A stretch of DNA of 64,000 bases from Escherichia phage JEP6, in the sequence record MT764206.1. One strand, 5' to 3'. Positions 2 to 57,551 of the stretch are shown piece by piece. Each line of letters starts with the position of its first letter. The first letter of the stretch is position 1. A program made the translations under genes and the position numbers. Below the pieces are notes generated by a model that was not told the origin of the DNA, did no database searches, and saw only the letters and a program-made list of their open reading frames with translations.

Positions 2-289
2 GGCGCAAGGTGGCAAGATATTGGTGGCGGTGGAGGAAGACCATTTGGCCCAGGAGGAGGCGGAGGTTATTCCGGTGGCGCAGCTTCTTATGATGGCCCA
101 GGAGGTGGTTATAATTATGGTAATGCTCACTCTGGCCAGGGTGGTGATGCTGGCGCAAATGGACAAAATGCCTGGCGTTATGGCGGTAAAGTTCTAAAAG
201 TTGGAGCTGGTGGCGCTGCCGGATATGCTGTTATAGGATCAGCTCCAACATGGCAAAATGTTGGAGCAATATATGGTCCAAGAGTATAA
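2..289 (+). CDS. tail-fiber adhesin gp38-like, C-terminal fragment (start lies left of window)
   Basis: Open frame from window edge to TAA 287-289; glycine-rich GGGG/PGGGG repeats and conserved C-terminal tail typical of T2/T6-type gp38 adhesins; sits just upstream of holin t as in T-even phages. Confidence 0.55.
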
Positions 290-976: not shown

Positions 977-1249
977 TTATTTGTTCGTATACATCTCTAG
1001 ATATCGATATACACCCTCAAAACCCTCGTTGAATTCGTCGATGAGGGTTTTCTTATCTTCTTGGGTTAATTCAGAAACAATTTTACGGAATGAATTCTGA
1101 TTTAACTTTCTACCTTCATGCGTTACTCCAATCTCATTCAGAAATGCAATAAAAATAGCACGATTCTCAACAATATCTTCTCTGGAAAATTTAATCAAAA
1201 TAGACGCAATAGTAATAATTTCACGAACTGTATCAATGTTTTTATTCAT
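977..1249 (-). CDS. asiA: anti-sigma70 factor AsiA
   Basis: 90 aa, MNKNIDTVREIITIASILIKF...; size, sequence and position next to t as in T4. Confidence 0.85.
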   Translation of the reverse strand: MNKNIDTVREIITIASILIKFSREDIVENRAIFIAFLNEIGVTHEGRKLNQNSFRKIVSELTQEDKKTLIDEFNEGFEGVYRYLEMYTNK

Positions 1250-11872: not shown

Positions 11873-11902
11873 ATTATACCACATCCTTGTGGTAAAGTAA
11901 AC
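11873..11902 (-). promoter_or_regulatory. early promoter (GTTTAC / TGGTATAAT)
   Basis: -35 hexamer overlaps gene 60 stop codon; 18-nt spacing. Confidence 0.55.
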
Positions 11903-12434
11903 TACTGGCTCATCCATTCTTTACGAAGGTCAGCATTATCTCCCATGAGCATTTCAAAAAGCTCTTTCCAGTTCTCAGGAAGTTTAACAACATCATAAAC
12001 TGGGTTCTGAATCATTTCACGGTATTCAGATTTTTCCAAAGAGCCAAGTCCCTTAATATAACGGATGCTATGTTTAGGTAGAGCATCTTTGGCACTCTCA
12101 TATTCAGCGACTGTATAAAACCATTCTTGTTTTTTACCGACCTGAGCGATGATTACAGGAGTTTTGACAAAGCGAATTCTTCCTTGTTCAAACAGTTCTG
12201 GCCAATTACTAAAAAATCCGAGCAGAGAAGGATAAATAGAACCTAATCCAATAATCTCTTAATTATGAGGTATTTCAATGGATAGCCCGAAGGCTATCCA
12301 TCGTGATCTGCGTCTGTCATAATAGCGACATTCGCATAGTTCATTGAAGAGGATTTAATAGAACGACGAACATTGTTCTGCGATTTATATTTTTTCATAT
12401 CAATGCTAGAAGAATCAATTTTTACAAATTTCAT
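11902..12434 (-). CDS. 60: topoisomerase II subunit gp60, translated with a 50-nt programmed bypass
   Basis: Codons 1-46 (12297-12434) end ...IMTDADHDG at take-off GGA, then UAG; codons 47-160 (11902-12246) resume LGSIYPSLLGFFSNWPELFEQ... after landing GGA; joined product 160 aa. Confidence 0.85.
12247..12296 (-). other. untranslated 50-nt coding gap of gene 60
   Basis: Minus-strand RNA UAGCCUUCGGGCUAUCCAUUGAAAUACCUCAUAAUUAAGAGAUUAUUGGA between matched GGA codons; take-off hairpin GGAUAGCC-UUCG-GGCUAUCC. Confidence 0.85.
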
Positions 12435-13233
12435 TATACACCTCGTAGAACTTTTCATCAGGAATCCAGCCGCGTTTAAATTCATTAAATGCTCGGCCGA
12501 ATAATTTTGAATTCACAGTTATATTATTAACTGATTTCCATTTAGCAACTCCCGTTCGTTTATAATGATCGGGGTCATATTTCGTGACGTACCATTCATA
12601 TAAATTTGGTATTAATTTTACAGCCTCTGGATTTGTCGCTGATTTATTATACCATGGTTTCGCTTTTTCAAGTTCAGCTGCTTTTGCAGTAGCAGCAACA
12701 GTATTTCCAATACCAACTAATTTTTCAGCTTTAATGCGTGGATCATTAACATGAAGACGAAAAACTTCGCCTTTTTCATTTTTAAAGCATGTCATGCCTT
12801 TAATTCCAGGAAGCTTAACACCTTTATTAACACCGCACCATTCCTTTGGGTTAAATGATCCTTTAATTAATAAGGCGCATTTACCCGATTTAATACTTCT
12901 CATTAAAACTTTATCTTTCATAAAGTTTTTTGACCATTCAGATACTGCTCTTTGATGGTAAATTCTAGCAATTTCATATAATTTACTAGAACGTAAATAT
13001 TTTTCAGTGTTTAACATTCTATTCATCGCATATGCCATTTCACGATTACGATGAATTTTATATAGTAGAAAATGTGCTAAAAAGTGTTCACGAAAAGTCA
13101 GTTTCACCAAATTTTCTTTATCATCAGAACCTCCCATTGATCTTGGAAGGATATGGTGAATTTCACCCTTAAATTTAGAAACGCGGGTTTTACCCCGCAC
13201 TATTAAGTCATTATAGATTTTTTCGTAATTCAC
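12415..13233 (-). CDS. mobA: HNH homing endonuclease (MobA-like) between genes 39 and 60
   Basis: HNH motif HHILPRSMGGSDDKENLVKLTFREHFLAH; overlaps 39 end by 23 nt and 60 start by 20 nt; listed first codon is GTG so true start uncertain. Confidence 0.7.
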   Translation of the reverse strand: MNYEKIYNDLIVRGKTRVSKFKGEIHHILPRSMGGSDDKENLVKLTFREHFLAHFLLYKIHRNREMAYAMNRMLNTEKYLRSSKLYEIARIYHQRAVSEWSKNFMKDKVLMRSIKSGKCALLIKGSFNPKEWCGVNKGVKLPGIKGMTCFKNEKGEVFRLHVNDPRIKAEKLVGIGNTVAATAKAAELEKAKPWYNKSATNPEAVKLIPNLYEWYVTKYDPDHYKRTGVAKWKSVNNITVNSKLFGRAFNEFKRGWIPDEKFYEVYNEICKN

Positions 13234-14761
13234 CTACTGTTATCCATTTACCATTAATCTGTACTTCATCATTTTCATTTACAATAATTGTATCACCATT
13301 TAGTTCGAGAGTAAACCACTCACCGTCTTCTTTTTCTTCAAACGCCTTTTCACCAAGAACTAATCCAGTGATTGCGCAAATATCAAACAGTTCTTTGTTT
13401 TTAAGCATGTCAGCATATGACATACCCCAGCTATTAAGAACTTTACCGCGCAATGGATAACCACCATGAAGTTCTTTATCGCGAACATCAATAAGATATC
13501 CGATAGCAGAATCACCCTCAGTCAAGAAAAGAGTAGTGTCAGCATCTTTACCGCAAAGATTCGCTTTAATATGTTTATGAACCTTAGCTTTAGAAGCCTT
13601 TTTAGCTGCTTTAGTTTCTGCTGCTTTTTCTGCCGCCAATTTACGAGCCAAAGCAGCTTCAATAATTGGCATTAAAATTGCTTCATTATTTAAAATAGCA
13701 CGTGAAATCTTTTTAGCATCAAGCTGAATATGACTACGGATTTCACCAAATGGAGAAGTCAAACGCTCTTTAGTTTGAGAATCAAATCGCATGTTTTTCA
13801 TATCACGAACAAACATAACGATAGTCAAACATTCTTTGACACGTGCTTTAGTTACATCAATTTTGAACTTACGTTTGATTTGTGGAATAAGGTCTTCACA
13901 AATATCATCCATAACACAGTCAATGTGATGACCACCATTCTTAGTATGAATGTTATTGACGTACGTTAATTGACGAAAACCATCCGGTGAACGACCAACC
14001 GCAATAGAACAGTTTTCTTGTTCTTGAACGATGGCGTGTTCATCATATTGGCGTGCATATTTCTTAAAATTACCCTGAACCTTTTTACCATTAAAGGTAA
14101 ATTGAATATCAGGATAAACTACTGCAAGTGTCTGGAGACGATCTAGTGTAATGTCAAGATAAACTTGGGACAGCTCATTAGTTTCAAATGACATAAAATC
14201 AGGAATGAAAGTAACACGAGTTCCTTTCCATTTTCCAGGAATAGTTTCCCATGATTTATTTTCCATGCCATTTGAACAACGAACTACAATATTATTTTGA
14301 CCATCACCAGTTTCACCGACAAACATCACAGAAAAAATGTTTGTCAAACTAGAACCAACACCATTCATACCGCCGGTGACGCGTTCTTTATCATCACCGA
14401 AGTTACCACCTGCTTTTGGAATAGTCCACGCAGCAACAGGACCAGGAATTTCTTCACCGGTAGGTGTTTTAACCATCGCTTGTGGAATACCACGACCGTT
14501 ATCTTCAACTGTTACCTGATTATTTTTAATGGTAACATTAATTTTATTTGCGAATTTAAACTTAGTACGAATACCTTCATCTACTGAGTTATCGATAATT
14601 TCATCAATAAGCTTAACAAGACCAGGTACATACTGAACACTTTCCCATTTACCAAACAGAAAGCGCTCATGCATTTCATTAGCAGAAGAGCCAATGTACA
14701 TGCCGCTACGCTTTTTGATATGTTCAATATCGCTCAGAATTTTAATTTCATTCTTAATCAT
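13211..14761 (-). CDS. 39: DNA topoisomerase II large subunit, ATPase part (GyrB-like)
   Basis: Start taken at second Met (MIKNEIKILSD), about 516 aa; GHKL ATPase motifs VEDNGRGIP and GMNGVGSS. Confidence 0.9.
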   Translation of the reverse strand: MIKNEIKILSDIEHIKKRSGMYIGSSANEMHERFLFGKWESVQYVPGLVKLIDEIIDNSVDEGIRTKFKFANKINVTIKNNQVTVEDNGRGIPQAMVKTPTGEEIPGPVAAWTIPKAGGNFGDDKERVTGGMNGVGSSLTNIFSVMFVGETGDGQNNIVVRCSNGMENKSWETIPGKWKGTRVTFIPDFMSFETNELSQVYLDITLDRLQTLAVVYPDIQFTFNGKKVQGNFKKYARQYDEHAIVQEQENCSIAVGRSPDGFRQLTYVNNIHTKNGGHHIDCVMDDICEDLIPQIKRKFKIDVTKARVKECLTIVMFVRDMKNMRFDSQTKERLTSPFGEIRSHIQLDAKKISRAILNNEAILMPIIEAALARKLAAEKAAETKAAKKASKAKVHKHIKANLCGKDADTTLFLTEGDSAIGYLIDVRDKELHGGYPLRGKVLNSWGMSYADMLKNKELFDICAITGLVLGEKAFEEKEDGEWFTLELNGDTIIVNENDEVQINGKWITVGELRKNL

Positions 14762-14830
14762 CACTTATCCTCGTTTGGTTTCGGGAATATTATACTCCGG
14801 TAATCATAAAGCTAAAGGCCCGAAGGCCTT

Positions 14831-15091
14831 TTATTTAAAACGAATAGTCGAATCCTTGAAGAATAGTCCAGAACATACTGTTCCTTCTACTTTCTGCCCA
14901 GTAGGTCCAACAGCACGAAATCCAGTGTGTTGGAAATCATTTTCAGAGCAACCGAACCAGTTATATCCAGTGATTTCAATATTAGTAAAACCACTTGAAG
15001 ACAAAACTTTGGTTGCATTATCAGCATCAGTACATCCTACTAAAGACACTGCTAATACTAATGCTGCGATAGAACGATTAACATATTTCAT
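14831..15091 (-). CDS. putative lipoprotein
   Basis: 86 aa, signal peptide with lipobox LVGC. Confidence 0.5.
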   Translation of the reverse strand: MKYVNRSIAALVLAVSLVGCTDADNATKVLSSSGFTNIEITGYNWFGCSENDFQHTGFRAVGPTGQKVEGTVCSGLFFKDSTIRFK

Positions 15092-15093
15092 AA

Positions 15094-15270
15094 TTACCCT
15101 TTAAGTAGGTCGTAAAATCCACCGTTCACATGCTTAGGAGCGGAAACTAACCGAATAGCAATCCGATGACAATCAGGACATACATCAGTATCTCTTTCAG
15201 AAATTTTCTTGATTTTTTCGTATTCTTTTGCACAGTCTTTGGATTGACATTTATAATCATAAAGCGGCAT
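15094..15270 (-). CDS. small zinc-ribbon protein (58 aa)
   Basis: MPLYDYKCQSKDCAKEY...CPDCHRIA, two CxxC pairs; below track cutoff. Confidence 0.4.
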   Translation of the reverse strand: MPLYDYKCQSKDCAKEYEKIKKISERDTDVCPDCHRIAIRLVSAPKHVNGGFYDLLKG

Positions 15271-15272
15271 AA

Positions 15273-15686
15273 TTATTCCTTAAAGTGAGCTTTCAACATC
15301 TGATACAAGGACCATGCTTGTTCATTATTTTCAATAGTAACTTTCATTACCGGGAATTCAGATGGTTCAGTTACTGGTGCAGGGTCTTCCTGCTCTTCAG
15401 CAGCCTGATATGGATTTTCCACTTCATTAAAGAACTCGGCTTCGTTGCTAGAAAGCCAGATAAAGTTTTCGTCAATGACTGTACCTCGTGATGAATATCC
15501 AACTATGCCAGTAGATGTCACAATTTTAGTAGGACGCCCGTAATAGTCAACATCTAAAATTTTAAAAGGTTCCATACCTAAACGCCGCGCATAGATTCCG
15601 TTATCAGTATGGTCTTTAATAAAATTTTCTTGAGCTTGTTTATTTTTGAATTGATACCATTTATTAACTTCAAATTTAATAGCCAT
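15273..15686 (-). CDS. hypothetical early protein (goF/comC-alpha position)
   Basis: 137 aa acidic protein. Confidence 0.45.
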
Positions 15687-15901
15687 TAATAAATTTCCTT
15701 CCAGTAAGTTGTGCCGTCTTCAGTAATTTCACGAAATACACCGTAAATTGGCTGTTTATCACCGACTTTCTCATACACATAAACAGAAGTCAAGTGAGTA
15801 AACTTGCTAGTATGTTCCTTTTGAACTACTACCAAATTTGGATCAAATAATACATCTTCAAATTCATCATTAGTGCAATTCTGAACAATTTTACGTTTCA
15901 T
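15686..15901 (-). CDS. hypothetical early protein (cef position)
   Basis: 71 aa, size matches T4 cef. Confidence 0.4.
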
Positions 15902-16072
15902 TACAATTTCCTCATTAATTAAACATTGGAGCGATGCGTTTCAGAAGAGTATCAGCACCTTTGGCGAATTTCCATTTTATTCTTCAAGTTGTTTTCTGTA
16001 TCAGTAGTTGATATTGATATAGTACCATAATCAACTACTGATGTATATAGTTTTATGAAAAAATTTTAAACT

Positions 16073-16570
16073 TTATGCACAGCGAGCTTTGCTATAGTGT
16101 TTAATCCAACTTTCAGGAATGACTTTGTATGTTCCTAAAAATACCGTGTTGTACAGCTTAACACCATCTTCTACCCACTGATCGGTAATGTATGCGCACA
16201 TAGCACGAGTACGGCGTTTTTGAACAACCCCTTCCTCATCTTCAGTAAATTCGAATTCATAAGGAGCAATGAACTTAATAGCTTGACCGAGTTTCCACTT
16301 AAAGTCTACACCTACATGCGAAGTATCAATCGTTTCAATTCCTTTAGCGGGAACAGCTTTCAAAAACGCAGATTCAAGAAATTTCGCGCGAACATAACCA
16401 AACTGAGGTTTAGACTTTCCATCTTTAGGAATGATACGCACTTTTACTTCAGAATCTTCATCTTTAACGCCGCGTTTAAGCTGAATGCTTACAATTTCGA
16501 CCAATTTTCCTGCTGCTTTAGAGCGGGATTTATCAGATACACGAGCAATTTCACCAATATTAATAATCAT
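16073..16570 (-). CDS. early protein, MotB-region paralog A
   Basis: 165 aa; shares ITDQW(V/I)EDGV(K/E)L motif with adjacent 181-aa ORF. Confidence 0.55.
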   Translation of the reverse strand: MIINIGEIARVSDKSRSKAAGKLVEIVSIQLKRGVKDEDSEVKVRIIPKDGKSKPQFGYVRAKFLESAFLKAVPAKGIETIDTSHVGVDFKWKLGQAIKFIAPYEFEFTEDEEGVVQKRRTRAMCAYITDQWVEDGVKLYNTVFLGTYKVIPESWIKHYSKARCA

Positions 16571-16614
16571 AGTTATCTCTCACTTGTTAAAAAGATTTTA
16601 TACTCCACAGGACC

Positions 16615-16644
16615 ATTATACTCTGGTCCCAAGAGTTTGTAAAC
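16615..16644 (-). promoter_or_regulatory. early promoter (GTTTAC / TATAAT)
   Basis: 18-nt spacing; palindromic spacer CTCTTGGGACCAGAG. Confidence 0.5.
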
Positions 16645-16646
16645 TA

Positions 16647-17192
16647 TTAATTCAAAATAGCTACCACCGCACTACGAGGTACTACACTAAAATCTCCTGC
16701 ATGGACAACGTTCAGAAGCTCAACACCATCTTCAATCCACTGGTCTGTTACCCAACCACAGATAGGATTATCAAAAGGACGACGGATAGACACAGCAGCA
16801 CACAACAGGTCTGTAGGGTCTTGTTCTTCAACTTCTTGGAACAGGATGAACTCATCTTCATAAACCAGGTTTTTCTTTATTTTGTTATTATCTAACCGGC
16901 GACCGTGGATGACGTAAGATTTGTCAAACCACTCACTTTTGGCAAATTCTTCAACAATAAATTCGCCTTCGCCAAAAACATCAGTCAGAGTTTTATGACC
17001 AGAAATCAAGGCATTAGTTTTAATTTTAGGTTCAACCAGTTTGTAGGTTTTGCCGATTTCAATAGCGGTAGTCATAGTAGGTTCCTTAATTTCCAGTGGT
17101 TTAACAGGGCATACATAAGTGCTTACAACATCAAAATCAATCAGTTTAGCTACCGGATTCGGTGTATATTCAGGATTATAATTAAATTTCAT
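16647..17192 (-). CDS. early protein, MotB-region paralog B
   Basis: 181 aa; paralog motif GWVTDQWIEDGVELLNVV. Confidence 0.55.
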   Translation of the reverse strand: MKFNYNPEYTPNPVAKLIDFDVVSTYVCPVKPLEIKEPTMTTAIEIGKTYKLVEPKIKTNALISGHKTLTDVFGEGEFIVEEFAKSEWFDKSYVIHGRRLDNNKIKKNLVYEDEFILFQEVEEQDPTDLLCAAVSIRRPFDNPICGWVTDQWIEDGVELLNVVHAGDFSVVPRSAVVAILN

Positions 17193-17194
17193 AA

Positions 17195-17695
17195 TTATCT
17201 CATTTCAATAAAATCTACGAGTTCAACATGCGATTTGCGGAACATTACTTGGTGCCCACCAATGATAACTTCATCTTCAGGAACTTCGTATACAGCGAGA
17301 TAAAATCCTTTAGAAGATAATTCTTCCCGCTCTTCTCGTGTGAACCATCTCATCATATCATATTCACTAGCGAAAGCAAAATGATAAAGACCTATAAACC
17401 ACCCTGGAATATGATATTCTACTCCAACATAATCTTTCTTGAACTTAGTATTAATTACTATATTAGCGTTTTTAACTAATAGTTTATCTTCGTGTGGTAA
17501 AGGAATTCTTTTATTATTATCGCTATGATGCATAAAATTAGGTCTGTCATAACCTACGTGTAATAGCCACTCTTCGCTCCATGAATCTATTATACTCCTG
17601 TATGGCGTTATTTGAACACAAAGATTTCGACGTATTGTTATAGCATCTTCACAATTAAGAATACTAAAAGATGATTCAACACGATAAATTTTCAT
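17195..17695 (-). CDS. hypothetical early protein
   Basis: Start at MKIYRVESS with SD GAGGA (track start over-extended into promoter). Confidence 0.5.
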   Translation of the reverse strand: MKIYRVESSFSILNCEDAITIRRNLCVQITPYRSIIDSWSEEWLLHVGYDRPNFMHHSDNNKRIPLPHEDKLLVKNANIVINTKFKKDYVGVEYHIPGWFIGLYHFAFASEYDMMRWFTREEREELSSKGFYLAVYEVPEDEVIIGGHQVMFRKSHVELVDFIEMR

Positions 17696-23400: not shown

Positions 23401-23553
23401 GTGATTTCCTCTTGCCTACTAACGGGCCGTCAGGAATTTTGTTTTCCTGGATATATTTCTCATTTTCTTCCATCATTTTACTACCGATTTTAAGAAGCAA
23501 ATCCAATGCTTCATTTGCTTTAGCCTTGGCCTCTTCTAACGTCATATCTCTGT

Positions 23554-23757
23554 TCACGATTTATCCCCATAGATGTCTCTCATCAATTTAAGCGCTGAGC
23601 GTTCTAATTTCTTTTCTTTCTCAGCACTAATCATTGATTTCATCCATTCTTCTGATTCGTTCTGCATTTCTTTATTTGCTTGTTCAACCCAGCCATCATC
23701 AATATACATTGAGTTTGGTCTATTGAACCATTCAAACATTTTCTTCAGAACTTTCAT
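23554..23757 (-). CDS. hypothetical protein
   Basis: 67 aa. Confidence 0.45.
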
Positions 23758-24229
23758 TTGTTTTACCTAAAACAACAGTAGGAGCATCATCAAATTCATG
23801 AATTTTTAGCAAATTTGGATGTAAACTATTCCATACAGAAGAAATAAAGTATGATAACGCATCTTCACTCGCAATTATAAATTTGTTTCCTTTGTCTATT
23901 TTCCAGTTATATACTGAATCGTACGAATAAAAAGATAAAGGCTTATCATTATATTGTTCTGCGCTAACATTAATGTATTCGGATTTAGTAAATGCTTCAA
24001 TTGCTCTAAATGGAATATTTGGTACAGTTTCAATAATACCAATCTTTTTAAGTTTTATTTCAGCATCTTCTGGAACTGGCATTGAAACGAAATTTTCTAC
24101 GAGATACATTGGGTCACAATAACCCTTATCAATCATTACTGCTACGGTAATTGGAACGTCTTTAGCAAACGACATACTATTACTGCTAATATACATTTCA
24201 AACAAAATCGCTTCCATAATTTTCCTCAA
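23732..24229 (-). CDS. hypothetical protein
   Basis: 165 aa. Confidence 0.5.
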
Positions 24230-24564
24230 TCACAAGATGTAGATGAACAACTAGAATCACAAGAACTTCCGCATGAATCGCCCGTCCATACATGAACAGG
24301 AACATTAGTATCATATGAATCAGAACTAGACTGTGTATTCTGCGTATTAGATGATGTAGGTGTTGACCAACGCCAAGGATTTTTATAATATTCTTGGGCT
24401 TCTTCATAAGTCATAGTAACTGCTTCTACTGTTCCATCTCCCATATAAACATATTCAACTACAGTTAAAGGAAGGTAGTCATTTGAAATAGGAACTACAC
24501 CTTCTCCAGGAGTTGTAGAGAAAAAATCCGTAAAGAAATTTTTAAACCAATTAAAGATAAACAT
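24226..24564 (-). CDS. hypothetical protein with Cys/Ser-rich C-terminal tail
   Basis: 112 aa ending [18 protein letters not shown]. Confidence 0.5.
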
Positions 24565-24770
24565 TACAAAAAGCCTCTTTTGAATTCGACTTGCTTTTCG
24601 CCATAATCATATCGAATCTCTGCATTAAATTCGACAGAACCATCTGCGTACATCATAAATGAATGCACAACAACTTCTGTAGACCATGGCTGTAGTTCAT
24701 ATTTTTTCATTACATGCCGTGAAATGATAATATCTAAATCTTCATTTGGTTTAATCCAGCGATTTAACAT
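24564..24770 (-). CDS. hypothetical protein
   Basis: 68 aa. Confidence 0.45.
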   Translation of the reverse strand: MLNRWIKPNEDLDIIISRHVMKKYELQPWSTEVVVHSFMMYADGSVEFNAEIRYDYGEKQVEFKRGFL

Positions 24771-24796
24771 AGTGCTCTCCTCTATAAGATAATTCT

Positions 24797-24826
24797 ATTA
24801 TACCATACTCATTTTGATATGTAAAC
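24797..24826 (-). promoter_or_regulatory. early promoter (GTTTAC / TGGTATAAT)
   Basis: 18-nt spacing. Confidence 0.5.
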
Positions 24827-24840
24827 CATAAAATGAAAAA

Positions 24841-24860
24841 AGGACTCCCGAAGGAGTCCT
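24841..24860 (-). terminator. hairpin AGGACUCC-UUCG-GGAGUCCU with U-run
   Basis: Perfect 8-bp stem, UUCG loop, U-rich tail on minus RNA; downstream of soc. Confidence 0.5.
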
Positions 24861-24867
24861 TGAATTA

Positions 24868-25104
24868 TTAACCACCTATTTCTGTAGGTGTAAACATTGC
24901 AGCATTCTTAGTTTTCCAAGTTGCTGCATCGGAAACTACAGTAGAATATGCCGCCTTTTCAGAAGGAAAGGTCTGATAATGAGAATCTGCAATACGGTGT
25001 TCATTTGAATATACATCAAATGCTACAGAAACTTCCATACCTTTAACTTCTTTGCCTTCACCTGCTGGATGAGTAAAGGTCTTGATGTTAACGAAACCAC
25101 CCAT
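24868..25104 (-). CDS. soc: small outer capsid protein Soc
   Basis: 78 aa; VNIKTF...GKE(V/I)SVAF...HYQTFPSEKAAYSTV matches T4 Soc. Confidence 0.8.
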   Translation of the reverse strand: MGGFVNIKTFTHPAGEGKEVKGMEVSVAFDVYSNEHRIADSHYQTFPSEKAAYSTVVSDAATWKTKNAAMFTPTEIGG

Positions 25105-25120
25105 AATAAACTCCTTTATT

Positions 25121-25128
25121 GTTTAATT
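25121..25128 (-). promoter_or_regulatory. late promoter TATAAATA
   Basis: Exact TATAAATA on minus strand about 20 nt upstream of soc start. Confidence 0.5.
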
Positions 25129-25285
25129 ACAGGTGTATTTATAACTTACAATTTGGCGTCTTTCCAGAGTTGTTCAATAATCTCTTGGTCTATTTCTTTA
25201 GTTATTTCATTACGTAATAAGGCAGTAAGGGCTTTCGCCCTTTTCTTATTCAACTTTTTGAGTTGACGTTTATTTAATTTAGCCA

Positions 25286-25804
25286 TTAATAACCTCGGTC
25301 TTGACGAGCGAAGTTTTCAGCATTTTTCAGATAATAAAGTTTAAAGATTTCTTCAGCCGTAAGACCGAGACCTTGGAACATGTTCAGAACGAAATGAAGA
25401 ATATCAATCATTTCGAATTTAATTTCCAACTGGTCTTGTGGAGACAAATCAGTAATTAAAGTTTCACGACGTTCACCATGTTGAGCTTTCCAAGGCTTCC
25501 ATACAGCAGATGCATCTTTTTCGCCATTGCTCATACCACCAAGAGAAGTCAGAAGTTCACGGAATTCATCATCAATATAATCTTTCTGATTACGCAGCCA
25601 ATCAACAACTTCACCTGCAGTAGCCAAATCATCAGGATGACGGTTATATTCAGGTTTATCTTTAGCTAAACGAACCTGCAGAGATTTCTGCATGTCAAGC
25701 ATAACTTGCAACGGGTCTTTTTCATCACCGAGAATATCCCAGTATTCATTTTGAGCTTTATCAGCGCCTTCAATCAGTTGTGAACATTCATTAAAGTATG
25801 CCAT
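25286..25804 (-). CDS. 56: dCTPase/dCDPase/dUTPase
   Basis: Start at MAYFNEC (SD AAAGGAAAAA), about 172 aa, MazG-like. Confidence 0.8.
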   Translation of the reverse strand: MAYFNECSQLIEGADKAQNEYWDILGDEKDPLQVMLDMQKSLQVRLAKDKPEYNRHPDDLATAGEVVDWLRNQKDYIDDEFRELLTSLGGMSNGEKDASAVWKPWKAQHGERRETLITDLSPQDQLEIKFEMIDILHFVLNMFQGLGLTAEEIFKLYYLKNAENFARQDRGY

Positions 25805-31066: not shown

Positions 31067-31411
31067 TTAAAAGAATTTAAACTTTTTCTTTGACCTTTTA
31101 TTGAATGCATCTTGTAGTTGCATTGTAATACATTTTTCTACATGAGGAGCTAACTCAGCTTTTCTTTCTTGGTCAAGAACAGCAAAGTCCATTACAACCT
31201 TTCCATCAACCCAATCTAATTTTGTCACATACACAATGTGTGTAGAACCATCTTCTAGTTTAATGACAATCTCCTGGATAACATTTTCCATGGCAGATTT
31301 AATTATCTTAAGAGACTCATTAAAAAGACGTTCTTTTCTTTCTTCTTCCCCCTCCGAAGAGGGGGATTCATCGATAATTTCTAGATCTAAGTCTAAATCA
31401 TCTTTATTCAT
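31067..31411 (-). CDS. 40: gp40 head-assembly/vertex protein
   Basis: Start at ATG MNKDDLDL, 5 nt after uvsX stop; track start is GTG. Confidence 0.6.
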   Translation of the reverse strand: MNKDDLDLDLEIIDESPSSEGEEERKERLFNESLKIIKSAMENVIQEIVIKLEDGSTHIVYVTKLDWVDGKVVMDFAVLDQERKAELAPHVEKCITMQLQDAFNKRSKKKFKFF

Positions 31412-32585
31412 TAAATTCTTCCATATCACTTAACTGCTCGAGGTCAGTTTCTAAATCAGCAGCTGATTTACTTTTACTTTCTGGAGATTTAAATTTTTCA
31501 ACCTTTGAGTTAATCAATTCATCAACTTCAGCTTCAACAATTTCATTACTATCAATAGCACCTAATTGATAAGCACGTTTAATAGCATCTCGGAATGGTT
31601 GATGCTTAAATAAAGGACCCCAGAATGTAGTGCAGTTGGTATCTTTTGCACGCCAAGATTTTTCTTCGCGAATCATCTCGCCGGTTTCTTCATCAAGAAA
31701 TTCACGAGCATACCAGCCATTTTTTGGTTTTACTACAAATCCTAATTCTAGAGCCATATCTAACAATCCAGAATAAGGATCGATACCACCGTCAAATTTA
31801 ACATCAATAAAGAATTTACTTTTTTCTTTAACGGTACGAGATTTTTCTACATTTAGAACAAATTGATACCCCTGAAGATCAGAACCATCTTTAATCTGAC
31901 GTTTACCGATAATGAATACAGTATCAGCCGAATACATTACGCCTGTACCACCTGTCATCACGGTTTTACTAAACATTTCAATCGTTTCAATTGTGTGGTT
32001 AACCGCAACACATGGAATATTTTTAATGCTAAAATAAGGAGTAACAATACGGAATAATGACTTCAGTGATTTAGCACGAGTCATATCTGCCACAGATTTT
32101 TCATTCAAGGCATCTTCCGTTTCTTTCTTAGAAGCCATATTACCAATTGAGTCGATGAATACAATAACCTTTTCACCACGCTCAATAGCTTCAAGCTGAT
32201 TCACCATATCAATTTTCAGTTGTTCAACTGACTGGATTGGCGTATGAATTACTCGTTCTGGGTCAACTCCCATGGATCGCAAATAAGCTGGAGTAATACC
32301 AAATTCGCTATCATAGAATAGACAAACCGCGTCAGGATATTTGTTCAAATATGCCGCAACCATAGTCAAAGACATATTTGATTTAAAGTGTTTAGAAGGC
32401 CCTGCAAAAATAGTTAAACCAGACTGCATACCGCCATCAATCGCACCAGAAATAGCGATATTAAGCATTGGAATTTTTGTACGAATTACATCCTTTTCAT
32501 TAAAGAATTTAGATGTAGTCAGCTCAGCAGTCATTTTAGAAGTGGAAGCTTTAATTAAACGGGATTTTAAATCTGCAATAGACAT
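31404..32585 (-). CDS. uvsX: UvsX recombinase (RecA-like)
   Basis: 393 aa; Walker A GPSKHFKS; matches T4 UvsX. Confidence 0.9.
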   Translation of the reverse strand: MSIADLKSRLIKASTSKMTAELTTSKFFNEKDVIRTKIPMLNIAISGAIDGGMQSGLTIFAGPSKHFKSNMSLTMVAAYLNKYPDAVCLFYDSEFGITPAYLRSMGVDPERVIHTPIQSVEQLKIDMVNQLEAIERGEKVIVFIDSIGNMASKKETEDALNEKSVADMTRAKSLKSLFRIVTPYFSIKNIPCVAVNHTIETIEMFSKTVMTGGTGVMYSADTVFIIGKRQIKDGSDLQGYQFVLNVEKSRTVKEKSKFFIDVKFDGGIDPYSGLLDMALELGFVVKPKNGWYAREFLDEETGEMIREEKSWRAKDTNCTTFWGPLFKHQPFRDAIKRAYQLGAIDSNEIVEAEVDELINSKVEKFKSPESKSKSAADLETDLEQLSDMEEFNE

Positions 32586-32662
32586 TCATTTTTTCCATAG
32601 GCATCATTATATTTTCCTCACTGGTTAAAGATAGAGTAATTATAACACAATAAATTTAGGCA

Positions 32663-33505
32663 TTAATCAACTGCTATTGGATGAATAGCATTAAACTTAT
32701 GAAATGCTTCTGATTTTTCTTTACGCGAAACACACATGCGAAGAACCTTTAGTGGTTCATCTTCTTCACCCAACGATTTTCGTTTTTCAATATTTGAAGT
32801 TTTCCAACGAGCTTGCTCTGGAAACTCTCTATTGATTTGCTCAAGCGCTCTATTATGTTTAGAATTACTACGAATTGAACTACACCCACCGGGAGCGTGT
32901 GATTTTCCAGATACAACTAGATATTTGAACAAGGCCAAATGCGGATAACCTTGATTAATTAAATTGAGAAATGCATACATATCTTCGCATAAATCAATTT
33001 TTCCATACCCAATTTGTTCTGTCGTAAGTTTTCCGAGGTCATACCATGTATTCGTGAATCCATATGAGTTTTCACGATAATTACCCCAAGATGAAGTAAT
33101 TTTAAAAATTGGTAGACGAGCATGACCGTGATAATACCCGCAATCCATGGCATCTTCAACGTATTGAATTAATTCATAGAACTGTTCACGAGTTAATTGA
33201 TTAATTTTATCTACACGCCGTTTATCGTCTCTCTTTCGTATTGAACTCATACGAATAGTAGTATCATCATCAATCATCCAGATTCGTTGACCTGCATACA
33301 TATCAGTAATTGCTTTACGAGTACCGGCAATTCCATTAACATCATCAGGAATAGTTACAATTTTAGCTCTAGACCCGTAAGCATCATAATAAGCTTTTTC
33401 TTCGTGTTCACGCACTACAATATGGGGTTCATAATCAGTCGGAAACATATTAAGGGCAGAAACTGCCCCTACACGCTGATAACTTGGAATTACGAATTGA
33501 ATCAT
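32663..33505 (-). CDS. putative DNA-modifying glycosyltransferase with DxD motif, not T4 beta-gt
   Basis: About 280 aa; WMIDDDT motif; occupies beta-gt locus between uvsX and 42; ATGA-coupled to gene 42 stop. Confidence 0.55.
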   Translation of the reverse strand: MIQFVIPSYQRVGAVSALNMFPTDYEPHIVVREHEEKAYYDAYGSRAKIVTIPDDVNGIAGTRKAITDMYAGQRIWMIDDDTTIRMSSIRKRDDKRRVDKINQLTREQFYELIQYVEDAMDCGYYHGHARLPIFKITSSWGNYRENSYGFTNTWYDLGKLTTEQIGYGKIDLCEDMYAFLNLINQGYPHLALFKYLVVSGKSHAPGGCSSIRSNSKHNRALEQINREFPEQARWKTSNIEKRKSLGEEDEPLKVLRMCVSRKEKSEAFHKFNAIHPIAVD

Positions 33506-34242
33506 TTCCACTCACCGTTATAATCTTTTTTCACAATATGAGTTTCGCCAGTATTCCACCAATGATCAACCAAGTAAAAATGACGAGAATATACATGAAG
33601 ACTTCCAACATTCCATATAATAGAACCTGCTTTATACTGACGAGTTGAATCGCCTGCATTCAAATCAGATACTAATTTATCTAATACGTATTTTTGCCAT
33701 GCATAATCATTACGGAATCCGAAGACCACGTCATTTGAGCGCATGTTAACAACCGCATTGACTTTCTTATCACGAATCAGGTACTGTACTGTATTAGTAC
33801 ACATGAAATCTGACATACCATCTTTATTGTAGTCAAATTGCATGGATGGACGAGTATAAATCATGATACCACGTCGAGAATCAGGATTTTGACCAAGTTC
33901 AGCTAAACACATATCATACTGGGCATAGTTATCTTCTGACCAGATAGCCCAACCATAATTCGAGTTAATTTCACCTTTAGAAGATGCTACCTGCTGCCAA
34001 ATCTTCGGTGTTTCACCTGGAATATCTTTAACAAACAGACTTTGAGACTTATACCATTCAAGTTCACGCTGAATGTATTCATCATTAAGAGCGCCAAAAA
34101 TAAACGGTTCATCTGCTACAAATGATGCGCCAATAATTTCAATAGTTTTAACGCCAGTTTTATCAACTACGAAATCTTTTTCCTTTAATGCAAGCCCCAA
34201 ATGAAGACGGATTTCTTCAACTGTCATAGAGTCACTAATCAT
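33502..34242 (-). CDS. 42: dCMP hydroxymethylase
   Basis: 246 aa, thymidylate-synthase-like; T4 gp42 length. Confidence 0.9.
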   Translation of the reverse strand: MISDSMTVEEIRLHLGLALKEKDFVVDKTGVKTIEIIGASFVADEPFIFGALNDEYIQRELEWYKSQSLFVKDIPGETPKIWQQVASSKGEINSNYGWAIWSEDNYAQYDMCLAELGQNPDSRRGIMIYTRPSMQFDYNKDGMSDFMCTNTVQYLIRDKKVNAVVNMRSNDVVFGFRNDYAWQKYVLDKLVSDLNAGDSTRQYKAGSIIWNVGSLHVYSRHFYLVDHWWNTGETHIVKKDYNGEWK

Positions 34243-46115: not shown

Positions 46116-46166
46116 TTAATATCCTCTTTGTTTTGGTTTATTTTATCAAAAAATTTATAAAGCAAT

Positions 46167-46186
46167 ATAGGAGCCGAAGCTCCTAT
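46167..46186 (-). terminator. hairpin AUAGGAGC-UUCG-GCUCCUAU with U-rich tail
   Basis: 8-bp stem, UUCG loop. Confidence 0.45.
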
Positions 46187-46359
46187 CCGCATAATACGCC
46201 ATACAAAGGCTCGTTAGAGCTTCTAAATTTTTATGCGCTTATATGTTATAGTTCCTTCTGCTTTAGCTTTATCGTAAGACTCTTTAAAGCGTCTCATCAT
46301 TTCTACTTTAGAGGAACGAATTTTATTATAATCTATTTCAGAAGTCTGGTGTTCATCTT

Positions 46360-46566
46360 TCATAACTGCCACCATTTTTTGACTTGATAAGAATCAACCC
46401 ACACTTTCATATTAGGGTCTGCTCTTACAATAGGAGGATTAACTTCTTTAATTGAACTATCATGGTATTCTTTTTCAGAAATTTTCACGCAAAGATGACC
46501 GTTCAAAGATTCAGTAAATCCTGCATTAATTTTAAGACGCTTGAATTTTACGTGTGTAAGCATCAA
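46360..46566 (-). CDS. hypothetical protein
   Basis: 68 aa. Confidence 0.45.
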   Translation of the reverse strand: MMLTHVKFKRLKINAGFTESLNGHLCVKISEKEYHDSSIKEVNPPIVRADPNMKVWVDSYQVKKWWQL

Positions 46567-50457: not shown

Positions 50458-50928
50458 TTAATCATGTTTCCACACCCCATCGGTATTTGACCAAAGTCGC
50501 TGATTATCTGATCCTCGCCACAACTTTTTAGTCGGAAGATTTTTCTCATACTTCCCATCAATAATAACATCAACATATTTAAGCATTTCTAGTTGTTTAA
50601 TATCTTCAAACTTATATCCTGTCCACAACCAAATGCTTTTATTGGGATAAAGATTTTTAATAGTTTGAACCACAGAGTGAATCACGTCTCTGTTATCAGG
50701 ATAAAGAGGGTCACCTCCAGTTATAGTCAATCCTTCTATATAATCATTATTCAAACATTCAATTAATTGCTCTAGTGTTTCACCAGTGAATGGAATACCA
50801 TTTCTAGCATTCCATGTTGATTTATTATAACACCCTTCGCATTTATGCAAACATCCAGTAACAAAAAGAACGGTCCTGCACCCAGGACCATTAACAAAAT
50901 CGCAAGGATAAAATCTATCATAATTCAT
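50458..50928 (-). CDS. nrdG: anaerobic RNR activase (radical SAM)
   Basis: 156 aa; CxxxCxxC-type cluster CLHKCEGCYN. Confidence 0.85.
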   Translation of the reverse strand: MNYDRFYPCDFVNGPGCRTVLFVTGCLHKCEGCYNKSTWNARNGIPFTGETLEQLIECLNNDYIEGLTITGGDPLYPDNRDVIHSVVQTIKNLYPNKSIWLWTGYKFEDIKQLEMLKYVDVIIDGKYEKNLPTKKLWRGSDNQRLWSNTDGVWKHD

Positions 50929-52206
50929 TGGTGTTTAACCCTATGCATGATTTCTTTATTTTTACCGAGATTAAATCCGCGTTCGTTCGGATTTCCCAAA
51001 TAACCACATGTTCTTCTTATTGTGTTCATCTTTTTAGGATCAGTTTCTCCACAAATAGAACAAACAAATCCGTTTTCAGTAGGAGTCATTTCATGGGTGC
51101 TTCCGCATGTAAAACATTTATCTACTGGCATATTAACACCAAAATAATCTAAATGTTGTGCAGCATAATCCCATACGGCCTCAAGACCTTTTAAGTTATT
51201 TTTCATATCAGGAAGTTCAACATAAGAAATGTGACCACCTGTCGCAATGAAATGATATGGCGCTTCACGAGAAATCTTTTCAAACGGAGTAATATTTTCT
51301 TCTACTGAAACATGGAAACTATTAGTGTACCAACCTTTATCGGTAACATCTTTTACGCTTCCATATTTTTCTGTATCAAGTTTACAGAAGCGATAACAAA
51401 GGTTTTCAGCAGGAGTCGAATATAAACTAAAAGCAAATCCGGTTCTTTCAGTCCACTGTTTAAGATGGGCATTCATTTTAGTTAAAATTTCCTGTCCAAT
51501 ATCACGACCGACAAGAATATTCAATTCATGAATACCAATGTATCCTAAAGACACTGAACTTCTACCGTTTTTAAATAACTCAATTATGTCGTCATCAGGT
51601 TTAAGACGAACCCCAAATGCACCTTCTTGGTAAAGAATAGGAGCAACAGTCGCTTTAACTCCTTTTAAGGAACTAATTCTACACATCAAAGCTTCAAAAC
51701 ACAAATCCATTCGTTCATTGAATAATTCAACAAATTTCTGTTCATTGAACTGTGTTCCAATATAAGAATCTAACGCGATGCGAGGAAGATTCAATGTTAC
51801 AACACCAAGATTATTACGTCCATCAAGAATTTCATTGCCAGTCGAATCTTTCCATACGCTCAAGAAACTACGGCAACCCATTGGAGAAACAGGAACAGAT
51901 GAACCAGTGATAGCTTTATTATTCTTAGCTGAAATAATATCAGGATACATCCTTTTGCTTGCGCACTCTAGAGCAAGCTGCTTAATATCATAGTTCGGAT
52001 CGTCTTTGTAAAGATTAACACCTTCTTCAACAAACATAACAAGCTTAGGGAAAATAGGAGTTATCCCATCACGACCAAGACCTTTAATACGATTTTTCAG
52101 AATTGCTTTCTGAATCATTCGTTCAGTCCAGTCAGTTCCCGTACCAAATGTAATTGTTACAAAAGGCGTTTGTCCGTTTGAACTAAAGAGAGTATTTACT
52201 TCATCA
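50925..52206 (-). CDS. nrdD: anaerobic ribonucleotide reductase, exon 2
   Basis: Continues ...EVNTLFSSNGQTPFV... to C-terminal zinc ribbon and glycyl-radical region; joined with exon 1 gives 605 aa. Confidence 0.8.
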
Positions 52207-53249
52207 TTATATTCAGCATGAGTCGCAAATTCATGCCCGTTTATATGAAACAACAAAATTTGGATAGTCCATAGATATGCAACGTTCTTTTATAGTGCTA
52301 GGATGAAAATTTAGCGCTTTAGCTGCTTCTATATAAGACGTATACTTAATACCGTCAACAACCACATATTCAGGAACTTTATGAATAGTAGTCTTAATAC
52401 TCAAAACAAGAGGATGAGTTTCGACTTCACTTTCAGTGCAATTTAAATATTCCGCTGCTTTTTTAAAACTTCTAAAAGTTTTATTTTTAAGCTTTATCGA
52501 TACTTGTTTTTTACTTTTTCGACTATTGATATTATTTTGCACATGTTCCTTAGATCTTCCGTTTTTAGCATAATATTCAGCTACAGAAGATTTTATATTG
52601 TTTTTATGAGATTCGGATAACACTTTACCCTTATGAGCATCTCTTAATTTTTGAATATGTTCTTCAGTATCCGGATGCTTATAAAACTTTTTACCGCCTA
52701 TGGATTTATTTAAACATTTTTTGCTATAAAAATATTTACGTATGACCTCTTCTTCATGTTTTAATGCATCTTTATAACTATCAAATGTTTTTAAAATTAT
52801 CCATTTAGTAGGTGTATCAGTTTTTAAGCGTTCATTTATATACTTAGATGACGTTGTGTAAGTTTTCCAGTTTGTGGGCTTGTTTTTAATTGTTCTAAAT
52901 TTTTTATAACCGATATAAATGTCGCCATTAGAAAACTTAACTAAGTATGTAAATGCGTCTTTATCTTTTATTTTAGTACAACGTCTTTTTATCCATTTCA
53001 TTGTTTCACCTCGTATTCATAAGATAATCTTATTTATACAAGATGACTGCTGCATGTCGCCATGCAGATTAGACTATATCTTCATCTTTCGATGCCGGCC
53101 GTTTCGAATAGCATTAGCTTCTATTCTACACCGCTACATTCATCACGGTTAGTCGTTAGGCATTTAGTTCAAAAGAACATTTAGCACGGGATTGTCTACT
53201 AGAGAGGTTCCCCGTTTAGACCGGTTTTACATGAGCCTGAATTAAATTA
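52207..53249 (-). mobile_element. group I intron in nrdD (approx. 1043 nt), boundaries inferred
   Basis: Exon 1 frame stops at 53242; exon 2 frame open from about 52206; intervening 5' core (GACAAUCCCGUGCUAAAU...) plus GIY-YIG ORF; junction after exon U 53250 / intron G 52207 restores QAYE-Y-EVN. Confidence 0.7.
52231..53001 (-). CDS. intron-encoded GIY-YIG homing endonuclease (I-TevII-like)
   Basis: 256 aa; N-terminal YLVKFSNGDIYIGY; SD GAGGTG; entirely inside nrdD intron. Confidence 0.75.
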   Translation of the reverse strand: MKWIKRRCTKIKDKDAFTYLVKFSNGDIYIGYKKFRTIKNKPTNWKTYTTSSKYINERLKTDTPTKWIILKTFDSYKDALKHEEEVIRKYFYSKKCLNKSIGGKKFYKHPDTEEHIQKLRDAHKGKVLSESHKNNIKSSVAEYYAKNGRSKEHVQNNINSRKSKKQVSIKLKNKTFRSFKKAAEYLNCTESEVETHPLVLSIKTTIHKVPEYVVVDGIKYTSYIEAAKALNFHPSTIKERCISMDYPNFVVSYKRA

Positions 53250-53787
53250 ACTCATACGCCTGAAACGCGTCGTATACGTCTTTTTCTGTTTTAGATTGGG
53301 CATAATTCAACGCATCAGCGATTTGCCATTTTTCTGCATCCTCAATATGTTTTGCATAGGTGCGTTTAACATATGGAGAAAGTACTTTATCTACATTCGC
53401 AAAAGTCGTTCCGCCATATTGATGAGAAGCAACCTGTGCAGTAATTTGTGCCATAATTGCAGTAGCAACGCCGATTGATTTAGGAGTTTCAATCTGCGCA
53501 TTACCGAGCTTAAATCCGTTTTCAAGCATTCCTTTTAAATCTACTAAACAGCAATTAGTAAATGGAAGAGCAGGGGAATAATCAATATCATGGAAATGGA
53601 TAATTCCGCTTTCATGCGCTTTCATAATAAAAGACGGGACCATATTTTTGGCAATGTGTTTAGACACAATACCAGCCATAAGGTCCCGTTGAGTTGGAAA
53701 AACACGAGAATCTTTATTAGCATTCTCGTTTAAAAGGTCTTTATTAGTTTTATGAATCAATCCTTCAATTTCTTTTTCAATTGTCAT
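53250..53787 (-). CDS. nrdD: anaerobic ribonucleotide reductase, exon 1
   Basis: MTIEKEIEGLIHKTNKDLL... through ...DAFQAYE. Confidence 0.8.
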
Positions 53788-56317: not shown

Positions 56318-56573
56318 GCTCTGGTTTACGCCAGTTAATCAATTGGACCTGTTCAGTACCACATTTTGGGCAATTCGGAACATTCTTAGAAGCCCTTTCG
56401 CGGCGTTCAACCATAACCATAATGGCATCCCAAGCAGGAGGTTTAAAGTCTAGATCGTCACAGCCATGAATCTTTCCACGCATTTCCAAATCGTCTTCTT
56501 CACCAGCCATAATAATTTTAATTAGACTAGAATTACTTGAAGCTGCAATGTCTTCTAATAGACGCTTTTTCAT
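56256..56573 (-). CDS. zinc-ribbon protein
   Basis: 105 aa; CPKCGTEQ...CRHCKH. Confidence 0.5.
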
Positions 56574-57499
56574 TTCAATACCTCAATAGCATTGCGTAAA
56601 CCATTTGCTTTGGCGGTTAAAGCCTTAAGAACTTTAGTATGCTCTTCAATTTGTTTTTCAACTTCAATCAAACGAGCATTGAGATATTCGCGTTCTTCAC
56701 TCAGATTATCAGCCTTTTCTGCTTTAGGTTCTTTTACAACTTGCTTATATGTATTAGGGTTCTTCAGTTTAATTAGAATGCGTGAACTGTACAGCATTGA
56801 ACCATTATCTTCGGTTTCGTCATACATTTCCACTACGTCCATCATCTCCACCATCGTGCAGAGTTTATAAGACAACGAACGAATAATTTTGTTGTGCTTA
56901 TTAATTTCTCTAGCTGTCATGGTGCCGAGATTACGTGAGTAATAATAAGGAACCTGGATATTAATTAATACTGATGAACCACCTGGCTTGTGTGTTACTT
57001 CATCAGCAATAACCCAATCCTTAACATGAACTGTATTTGTACGGTCATCGCCCGCGGTAAATAGTTTACGAGCATGCTTAAAAAGCATATTCACTTGGTC
57101 ATTGAATTGACAAGCGAATTTATCAGCAAATTTAGTTTCGGGAATGGTAGATAACCAATCAGCCAAATGGGTCTTTTTAACATCGTTAACAATAGTAAAT
57201 TCAACCAAATCGGTTATAGATGTCTCAGATTTAATGAAGCTCGGCTTCATAAAGTTTTTAATGTTATCACTAGCTACAGTAGAAGATAACAGACGAGAAC
57301 GTTTAAACCATTGAAGCAAATTGCCTAACGAATGTGAATACGCATTTTGTGTATCTTTACAAATATGGTTTTCCCATCCAATATAGTCTAAAAAATCACG
57401 AAGAATATTATTGATTACTGCTCTGTGTCCTATCTGATAATTACGATGTTTAGTAATAAGACTGTCAAAATAATCAATATAATGTTTACGAGTTTTCAT
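56570..57499 (-). CDS. paralog-array protein 1 (C-terminal coiled coil)
   Basis: 309 aa; shares KQxLxxAS(R/K)LxxGD-type core and heptad C-terminus with next three ORFs. Confidence 0.6.
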   Translation of the reverse strand: MKTRKHYIDYFDSLITKHRNYQIGHRAVINNILRDFLDYIGWENHICKDTQNAYSHSLGNLLQWFKRSRLLSSTVASDNIKNFMKPSFIKSETSITDLVEFTIVNDVKKTHLADWLSTIPETKFADKFACQFNDQVNMLFKHARKLFTAGDDRTNTVHVKDWVIADEVTHKPGGSSVLINIQVPYYYSRNLGTMTAREINKHNKIIRSLSYKLCTMVEMMDVVEMYDETEDNGSMLYSSRILIKLKNPNTYKQVVKEPKAEKADNLSEEREYLNARLIEVEKQIEEHTKVLKALTAKANGLRNAIEVLK

Positions 57500-57551
57500 G
57501 TTCTTCTCACTTGGTTAATGATTTATACTCCGAGCCATCCTTGGCTTTAAA

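Follow-up and report, generated by a model that had tools for sequence, protein, structure and literature searches.

The 3' end of gene 38 in Escherichia phage JEP6 encodes the C-terminal part of an adhesin-type gp38, likely directed at OmpA, in an ordinary recombining T-even genome

The window analysed here is a stretch of 64,000 nucleotides from Escherichia phage JEP6 (sequence record MT764206.1), which opens inside gene 38 of a Tequatrovirus. We assign the product of this gene, with high confidence, to the receptor-recognising adhesin gp38, which likely targets OmpA and is encoded in an ordinary, recombining T-even genome. The coordinates of the gene fragment, its sequence blocks and the other features considered are listed in Table 1.

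Table 1. Features of the window, with strand and basis of assignment (residues numbered from the start of the fragment).
Feature	Position	Strand	Basis
3' end of gene 38, last 95 codons	2..289	+	Translation, PF05268, PDB matches, 99.3% nucleotide identity to HY03/ELT1
Conserved glycine-rich block, 15 aa, residues 8–22	23..67	+	Invariant alignment columns
Variable stretch, 22 aa, residues 23–44	68..133	+	Alignments; loop definitions of PMC12892980
Conserved glycine-rich block, 10 aa, residues 45–54	134..163	+	Invariant G45, G47, G48, G51, G54
Variable segment, 13 aa, residues 55–67	164..202	+	PP01 loop E equivalent
Last glycine-rich block, 12 aa, then 16-aa conserved C-terminal motif	203..286	+	Alignments
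Holin t, 218 aa	320..976	+	Pfam Phage_holin_T, E 4.6e-117
Gene 60, topoisomerase II large subunit C-terminal part, predicted translational bypass	11902..12434	-	Sequence; T4 comparison
mobA, intact 272-aa HNH homing endonuclease	12415..13233	-	Open reading frame; weak Pfam HNH match, E 7e-4
Beta-glucosyl-HMC-alpha-glucosyltransferase, T2/T6 type, 282 aa	32663..33511	-	T2 identity; Pfam TAGT, E 5.5e-10
Group I intron in nrdD, 1045 nt	52205..53249	-	Rfam Intron_gpI, 70.9 bits (gathering score 50), scan of 52100–53350

Translation of positions 2–286 in frame 2 yielded 95 codons free of stops, followed by TAA at 287–289. The open reading frame of gene 38 is cut at its 5' end by the start of the window, leaving the C-terminal 95 residues visible. 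As gp38 comprises 264 residues in near-identical phages, the window holds residues 170–264, which correspond to the C-terminal 36% of the protein. Glycine accounts for 34.7% of the fragment. Among the 2,207 stop-free 95-residue segments obtained by six-frame translation of the 64-kb window, the mean glycine content was 5.4%, with a standard deviation of 2.7%, and the next highest value was 17.9%, so that the composition of the gp38 fragment lies far from chance. An antisense open reading frame of 69 residues at 178–387 was discarded for want of support, and scans of positions 1–1400 for sigma-70 promoters and terminators gave results at chance level.

The fragment was assigned to the Pfam family GP38 (PF05268) with a score of 63.5 bits (cut-off 25; E 3.3e-17), the match covering positions 127–218 of the 218 in the profile. 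A sequence search of the PDB with phmmer returned only two entries, the gp38 proteins of PP01 (9v85_A) and S16 (6f45_D), each with an E-value of approximately 1e-6. Two protein searches with the 95-residue fragment, one of them tblastn against a phage collection, gave no hits, an effect of low-complexity or composition filtering of the glycine-rich sequence; homologues were recovered with the DNA and with the full-length ELT1 protein. NCBIfam contains no gp38 or mobA model and none for the two glucosyltransferases. The Pfam and PDB matches thus place the glycine-rich segment within an adhesin and bear out the initial annotation, which had described a glycine-rich gp38 adhesin tail upstream of holin t; the protein strings quoted there were right overall, except that one glycine was missing from each polyglycine run.

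The position of the gene upstream of t, and nothing else, would also suit a T4-type gp38, i.e. an assembly chaperone similar to lambda Tfa, or an unrelated glycine-rich or low-complexity frame. We regard this reading as barely credible. T4 gp38 consists of 183 residues with 5.5% glycine, its best local alignment to the fragment spans seven residues with a score of 24, and its relatives are the tail fibre assembly proteins of lambda and P2. A low-complexity frame, in turn, would hardly score above the gathering threshold of Pfam GP38 or match gp38 proteins of solved structure, as the fragment does. Both variants were consequently rejected on the comparisons with the PDB, Pfam and T4 gp38, and the earlier view that the fragment is distinct from the T4 chaperone stands.

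Assignment to the adhesin family is further reflected in the internal layout of the fragment. Alignments of 10 and of 48 diverse gp38 proteins revealed that the motifs GGGGGRPFG, GxGGxxGxxG and GGAAGxAV, together with the C-terminal motif, are kept, and that the stretches between them differ. The three glycine-rich blocks of the fragment carry the invariant columns of the family in fixed order, the first motifs being located upstream of the window. Within the first visible block, G9–G12, R13, P14, F15 and G16 (fragment numbering) are invariant in both alignments, and the block aligns with GGGGGRPFG of the PP01 and S16 structures. The second block includes the aspartate equivalent to D217 of the "type 1" OmpA-binding Gp38 of AV119 and FL08 (residue 217 of AV119 is likewise aspartate). 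The variable stretch between these two blocks includes the counterparts of receptor loops C and D of PP01 and is unlike the corresponding regions of T2, T6, M1 and Ac3. The C-terminal motif of 16 residues is identical in T6, M1, ELT1 and HY03, and nearly so in PP01 and S16.

For the fold, the nearest full-length homologue retrieved, P0008, which matches the fragment at 92 of 95 residues, served as a proxy. Its AlphaFold2 model had a mean pLDDT of 86.2, and a Foldseek search of the PDB with this model retrieved 9v85 (E 2e-26) and 6f45_D (E 3e-22), the next match having an E-value above 4. The proxy model, rather than the fragment itself, is thus predicted to adopt the gp38 fold, a beta-helix combined with a polyglycine-II sandwich. 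The gp37-attachment domain Gp38_N (PF21721) was detected in ELT1 gp38 (E 1e-21) and in all close homologues, and the corresponding region of the present protein lies upstream of the window.

These features are compatible with the mode of action proposed for the family. One gp38 molecule would sit on the end of the distal half-fibre, a gp37 trimer, and be attached there by its N-terminal domain, encoded upstream of the window. The glycine-rich motifs would form polyglycine-II helices packed as a "PGII sandwich", and the variable segments between them would protrude as loops at the distal end. Such loops would bind an outer-membrane protein at its extracellular loops and so set the host range. 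A PGII sandwich with protruding receptor loops is described in PMC12892980; the mechanism is also taken from Dunne et al. 2018, as cited in that article, and from Trojet et al. 2011 (PMC3157838). In these terms, the visible fragment would contribute three glycine-rich blocks, the last variable loops (equivalents of C, D and E) and the C-terminal motif.

The genomic setting is that of the T-even phages. Holin t starts 30 nucleotides past the stop codon of gene 38 and is preceded by an AAGGAGG ribosome-binding site. The gene order 37–38–t–asiA is common to T4, T2, ELT1 and HY03. Gene 37 lies upstream of gene 38 in ELT1, HY03 and T2, and in the present phage the window covers the t side.

The variable segments were used to place the fragment among known alleles. 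The fragment shares 99.3% nucleotide identity with gene 38 of HY03 and ELT1, 98.3% with that of SG1 and 96.9% with those of RB32, RB33 and wV7. At the protein level, 91–92 of the 95 residues match KIT03, wV7, SH7 and CE1, with 87 matching AV119 and 86 matching FL08; identity decreases to 56/95 with M1, 54/95 with T6 and only 49/95 with T2. By these comparisons, the visible variable segments belong to the allele group of RB32, HY03, ELT1 and KIT03, close to the "type 1" proteins of AV119 and FL08. The designation "T2/T6-type" given in the initial annotation therefore holds for the architecture of the fragment and fails for its variable segments, which fall within the RB32/HY03/AV119 group; judged from sequence, the fragment is T2/T6-type by architecture and not by specificity.

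This placement has consequences for the predicted receptor. RB32 requires OmpA and responds to the composition of the lipopolysaccharide (LPS), and its specificity moves with the variable segments (PMC3157838). AV119 and FL08 are OmpA-dependent phages with a "type 1" Gp38 (PMC12032242), their dependence, like that of RB32, having been demonstrated by experiment. Of the residues highlighted in that study, those located within the fragment, namely G169, A170, R181, D217 and R262, are all kept here. As the visible segments match the OmpA-dependent RB32/AV119 group, OmpA, and not the receptors of T2 or T6, is probably the primary receptor, possibly accompanied by some dependence on the LPS core. 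For the parts of the protein encoded upstream of the window, the prediction relies on relatives with 99% identity; these parts are the attachment domain at the N-terminus, the glycine-rich motifs and variable segments that come first, and, within the proposed OmpA contact patch, R165–S168.

An adhesin directed at another receptor (Tsx, OmpC, OmpF, FadL or LPS) would result if the N-proximal variable segments upstream of the window differed, or if specificity had been shifted by two substitutions, H228R and D229Y, found in the fragment. Only half of the specificity domain is encoded in the window, and exchanges of one to three variable-segment residues can be enough to switch the receptor or widen the choice of receptors, as with PST versus T6 and SV76 versus T2 (PMC3157838). 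Moreover, both substitutions are specific to this window and map to the equivalent of loop E, in which Tyr230 of PP01 cross-links to OmpC, and the resulting dipeptide RY occurs in none of 38 homologues. Against this, apart from this pair the variable segments in view match HY03 and ELT1 residue for residue and are nearly identical to those of the OmpA-dependent RB32 and AV119, and position 228 is naturally occupied by H, Y, S, N or Q within the allele group, with no reported change of receptor. On balance, we consider a receptor other than OmpA unlikely, albeit by no means negligible, and retain OmpA as the predicted target.

The two substitutions derive from a change of CAT GAT to CGT TAT at nucleotides 177 and 179; they are adjacent and both non-synonymous, and at every other position of 1–320 the window agrees with HY03 and ELT1. 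In the AWxxGGK context, the dipeptide at this site is YD, HD, SD, ND, QD or SY in the 38 homologues, and never RY. An exact 40-mer spanning the RY codons found no match in IMG/VR or the JGI metagenomes. According to the alignment and the loop definitions of PMC12892980, the site aligns with loop E of PP01, in which Tyr230 cross-links to OmpC (PMC12892980). The pair is therefore predicted to lie in a receptor-contact loop and is the sole feature specific to this gp38 fragment. That it represents a host-range adaptation, altering either the OmpA loop variants or the receptor recognised, is a tentative suggestion that we hold to be rather improbable. The pair R228/Y229 nevertheless provides a cheap candidate for host-range testing.

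Beyond gene 38, the initial annotation had portrayed the genome as a mosaic, in which a T4-type gene 60/mobA and nrdD intron were combined with an adhesin gp38 and a non-T4 glycosyltransferase. All the elements named are present. The mobA gene sits between gene 39 (13211–14764, 517 residues) and gene 60, and is annotated under this name in T4T and relatives. The N-terminal part of gene 60 ends in ...TDADHDG followed by a stop, the bypass signal being read as GGA TAG, 47 nucleotides and GGA: the take-off GGA is at 12299–12297, the UAG at 12296–12294, the 50-nucleotide gap at 12296–12247 and the landing GGA at 12249–12247. The gap differs from that of T4 by two substitutions. Overall, the cassette and its counterpart in T4 strains share 98.8% identity, in keeping with its earlier description as T4-type, and the topoisomerase gene of T2 is uninterrupted. 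Of 499 matching records, 40 had the full mobA cassette, and in the others the topoisomerase gene was uninterrupted. By sequence, these features are consistent with a mobA homing element and a gene 60 translational bypass. The MobA element has been described and documented as mobile, with repeated insertion into the topoisomerase gene (bioRxiv 10.1101/2022.08.31.505936; PMC2988022).

The nrdD gene consists of exon 1 at 53787–53250 and exon 2 at 52204–50925, separated by the group I intron. Removal of the intron yields an NrdD of 605 residues, which matches the uninterrupted NrdD of T2 at 604 of 606 positions. The intron contains an open reading frame at 53001–52231 for an I-TevII-like GIY-YIG endonuclease of 256 residues with GIY-YIG and NUMOD1 domains, which is 56% identical to T4 I-TevII over its full length. 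Splice sites and exon junctions coincide with those of T4, and the intron DNA has diverged from T4 far more than the flanking exons. With megablast, the intron allele matched 43 records at 99.4% identity or more, T4 not being among them. The initial label of a T4-type nrdD intron is thus appropriate for the insertion site and the group I class and inappropriate for the allele, which is a diverged one whose endonuclease is a homologue of I-TevII.

The third marker, the glucosyltransferase, lies in the interval from uvsX to gene 42, which in T4 is occupied by segA and beta-gt. Its open reading frame is 96.1% identical at the amino-acid level to the T2 frame in the same slot, which confirms the non-T4 type recognised earlier. 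It occurs in 474 records at an identity of at least 90% and is annotated in RefSeq as beta-glucosyl-HMC-alpha-glucosyltransferase; the tiles covering 32501–33500 had no match in T4. An orthologue of the T2-type enzyme accordingly takes the place of the T4 beta-gt.

The initial annotation had further interpreted these markers as host-range and DNA-modification cassettes exchanged into a T4-like backbone, i.e. a recent import of a T2/T6 gp38 and glucosyltransferase. The markers themselves invite this reading: mobA/gene 60 and the presence of an nrdD intron recall T4, and the adhesin gp38 and ba-gt recall T2. In addition, tiles of 500 nucleotides form a patchwork closer to T4 in some places and to T2 in others, and recombination is therefore real. 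The backbone, however, is equally near both phages: the 75 tiles that align to both have mean identities of 95.7% to T4 and 95.4% to T2, with T4 closer in 31 and T2 in 33. The supposed imports, moreover, are the majority state. Adhesin-type gp38 was found in 892 phage records and the T4-type chaperone in approximately 207 T-even-type records; Trojet et al. 2011 (PMC3157838) call the adhesin "the predominant form". Conversely, the markers reminiscent of T4 are homing elements, which a minority of relatives carry and which are known to invade intact genes (bioRxiv 10.1101/2022.08.31.505936; PMC2988022), and the nrdD intron allele is not that of T4.

An import of cassettes into a T4-like backbone is hence very unlikely. 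The data are more economically explained by homing elements having entered an otherwise typical T2-like or RB-like genome. The direction of exchange is thereby reversed relative to the initial annotation, and T4 is the outlier for both gp38 and beta-gt. The mosaic of markers as such withstands scrutiny, with recombination in evidence. The combination is already found in GenBank: HY03, a published GenBank/RefSeq genome, and ELT1 share the same four markers, namely the gp38 allele group, the mobA cassette, the intron allele and the T2-type transferase, and pSe_SNUABM_01 and vB_EcoM_CE1 have at least the first three. The best database identity of the present genome is 96–98%.

The gp38 adhesin family, with its alternation of glycine-rich and hypervariable sequence and its fold, has been on record since 1987, and solved structures were released in 2018 and 2026. 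Given that both the gp38 tail and the combination of markers already occur in published genomes, the finding is correct and ordinary, with nothing new in kind, and represents an isolate-level variant of a well-known type. Its value extends little beyond correct annotation. Nonetheless, the gp38 allele allows the host range or receptor of this phage, probably OmpA, to be predicted. More generally, T4 is atypical in its genus, and "non-T4" traits of a T-even phage are not to be taken for imports.

The closest known systems are HY03 (KR269718) and ELT1 (MZ892903), in which the last 289 nucleotides of gene 38 and the 30-nucleotide spacer to t are the same as here, bar two positions. Their gp38 proteins have 264 residues and comprise Gp38_N and GP38 domains, with H228/D229 in place of R228/Y229 of the present phage. 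The likeness extends to the mobA/gene 60 cassette (98.7–99.6%), the nrdD intron allele (99.8–99.9%) and the T2-type glucosyltransferase. In contrast, both relatives have a homing endonuclease that splits uvsX and an extra open reading frame beside the transferase, which are absent from this window, and their overall genome identity to this phage is approximately 96–98%. The gp38 proteins of RB32/RB33, AV119 and FL08 display the same set of visible variable segments and share R181, D217 and R262. Compared with AV119 and FL08, the fragment has eight to nine substitutions (N172R, VA to DG, Q to N, G to A, SD to RY and V to A).

The S16 gp37–gp38 tip complex (PDB 6F45) and the receptor-binding domain of PP01 gp38 (PDB 9V85) represent the same family, their likeness in fold being established via the proxy model, to which PP01 is 64% and S16 44% identical. 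Their glycine-rich and C-terminal motifs align with the fragment, but both bind OmpC and their loop sequences are unlike those found here. The gp38 proteins of T2, which uses FadL/OmpF, and of T6, which uses Tsx, have the same architecture, glycine-rich motifs, C-terminus and genomic position; as their variable segments are unrelated, the receptor specificity of T2 or T6 is not expected. Finally, T4 gp38 bears the same gene number and occupies the same slot between 37 and t, but is an unrelated protein devoid of alignable similarity: it is absent from the virion tip, and the tip of T4 gp37 itself binds the receptor (PMC3157838).

The group I intron that splits nrdD (1,045 nt) is inserted exactly where its T4 counterpart lies and, judged by its sequence, is an allele diverged from that of T4. 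Its GIY-YIG/NUMOD1 endonuclease shares only 56% identity with I-TevII, the endonuclease of the T4 nrdD intron, and the intron DNA is far less conserved than the flanking nrdD exons, which are ~97–98% identical. The allele of the window was found at 99.4–100% identity in 43 phage records, among which T4 is absent. This distribution and the divergence fit an old intron lineage that would have spread horizontally in recent times. The intron core was detected with Rfam when a 1.25-kb region was scanned alone, scoring 70.9 bits for Intron_gpI (gathering score, 50), yet the whole-window scan at gathering threshold returned no Rfam family; negative whole-window Rfam results can be filter misses. The T4 late-promoter consensus TATAAATA occurs without mismatch ~30 nt upstream of the start codon of the intron endonuclease, in agreement with the arrangement of late promoters that has been described for the intron endonucleases of T4. 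Only two exact matches to this consensus occur in the window, compared with 9.7 expected by chance.

Features of the nrdD intron, gene 60, mobA and the region downstream of holin t
Feature	Coordinates	Strand	Remark
nrdD intron	52205-53249	-	Insertion site as in T4
Intron endonuclease ORF	52231-53001	-	GIY-YIG/NUMOD1
Intron core	53050-53285	-	Intron_gpI
Late-promoter consensus match	53031-53038	-	TATAAATA, exact
Gene 60 bypass gap	12247-12299	-	Two positions unlike T4
mobA	12415-13233	-	Intact, 272 aa, GTG start
Hairpin and T-run	1019-1051	+	14-bp hairpin

Homing-gene sets vary among genomes that are elsewhere 96–98% identical. Several free-standing T4 homing endonuclease genes are missing at the corresponding sites of the window: segA at 31404-33511, where uvsX is directly followed by the T2/T6-type glucosyltransferase gene; mobB at 46116-46531, where ~400 bp separate a-gt and a-gt.4; and mobC at 50925-50928, where nrdG overlaps the end of nrdD. 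In ELT1 (MZ892903) and HY03 (KR269718), the closest relatives by the 3' end of gene 38, an endonuclease splits uvsX, whereas the window lacks it.

Several 500-nt tiles within 15001-17500, 23501-25500 and 56501-57500 are only 76–90% identical to T4 and T2 alike, compared with ~97% in the background. By these identities, they mark hyperplastic early-gene regions in which the window alleles are neither those of T4 nor those of T2. Just 3' of holin t, in the 3'-terminal part of the convergently oriented asiA gene, a hairpin followed by a T-run was observed, which could act as a terminator for t. A single terminator-like site in this region does not exceed the 1.3 expected by chance.

The gene 60 bypass gap reads ...GGCTATCCATTGAAAT in the window and ...GGCTATCTATAGAAAT in T4. 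In the take-off hairpin, GGAUAGCC/GGCUAUCU, the first change converts the closing pair from G.U in T4 to G-C; the other change removes the second in-gap UAG of T4. The adjacent HNH homing endonuclease gene mobA is annotated in the reference T4 record as defective and split into 60.1 and mobA, whereas that of the window is intact, with a GTG start, as in strain T4T and many relatives.
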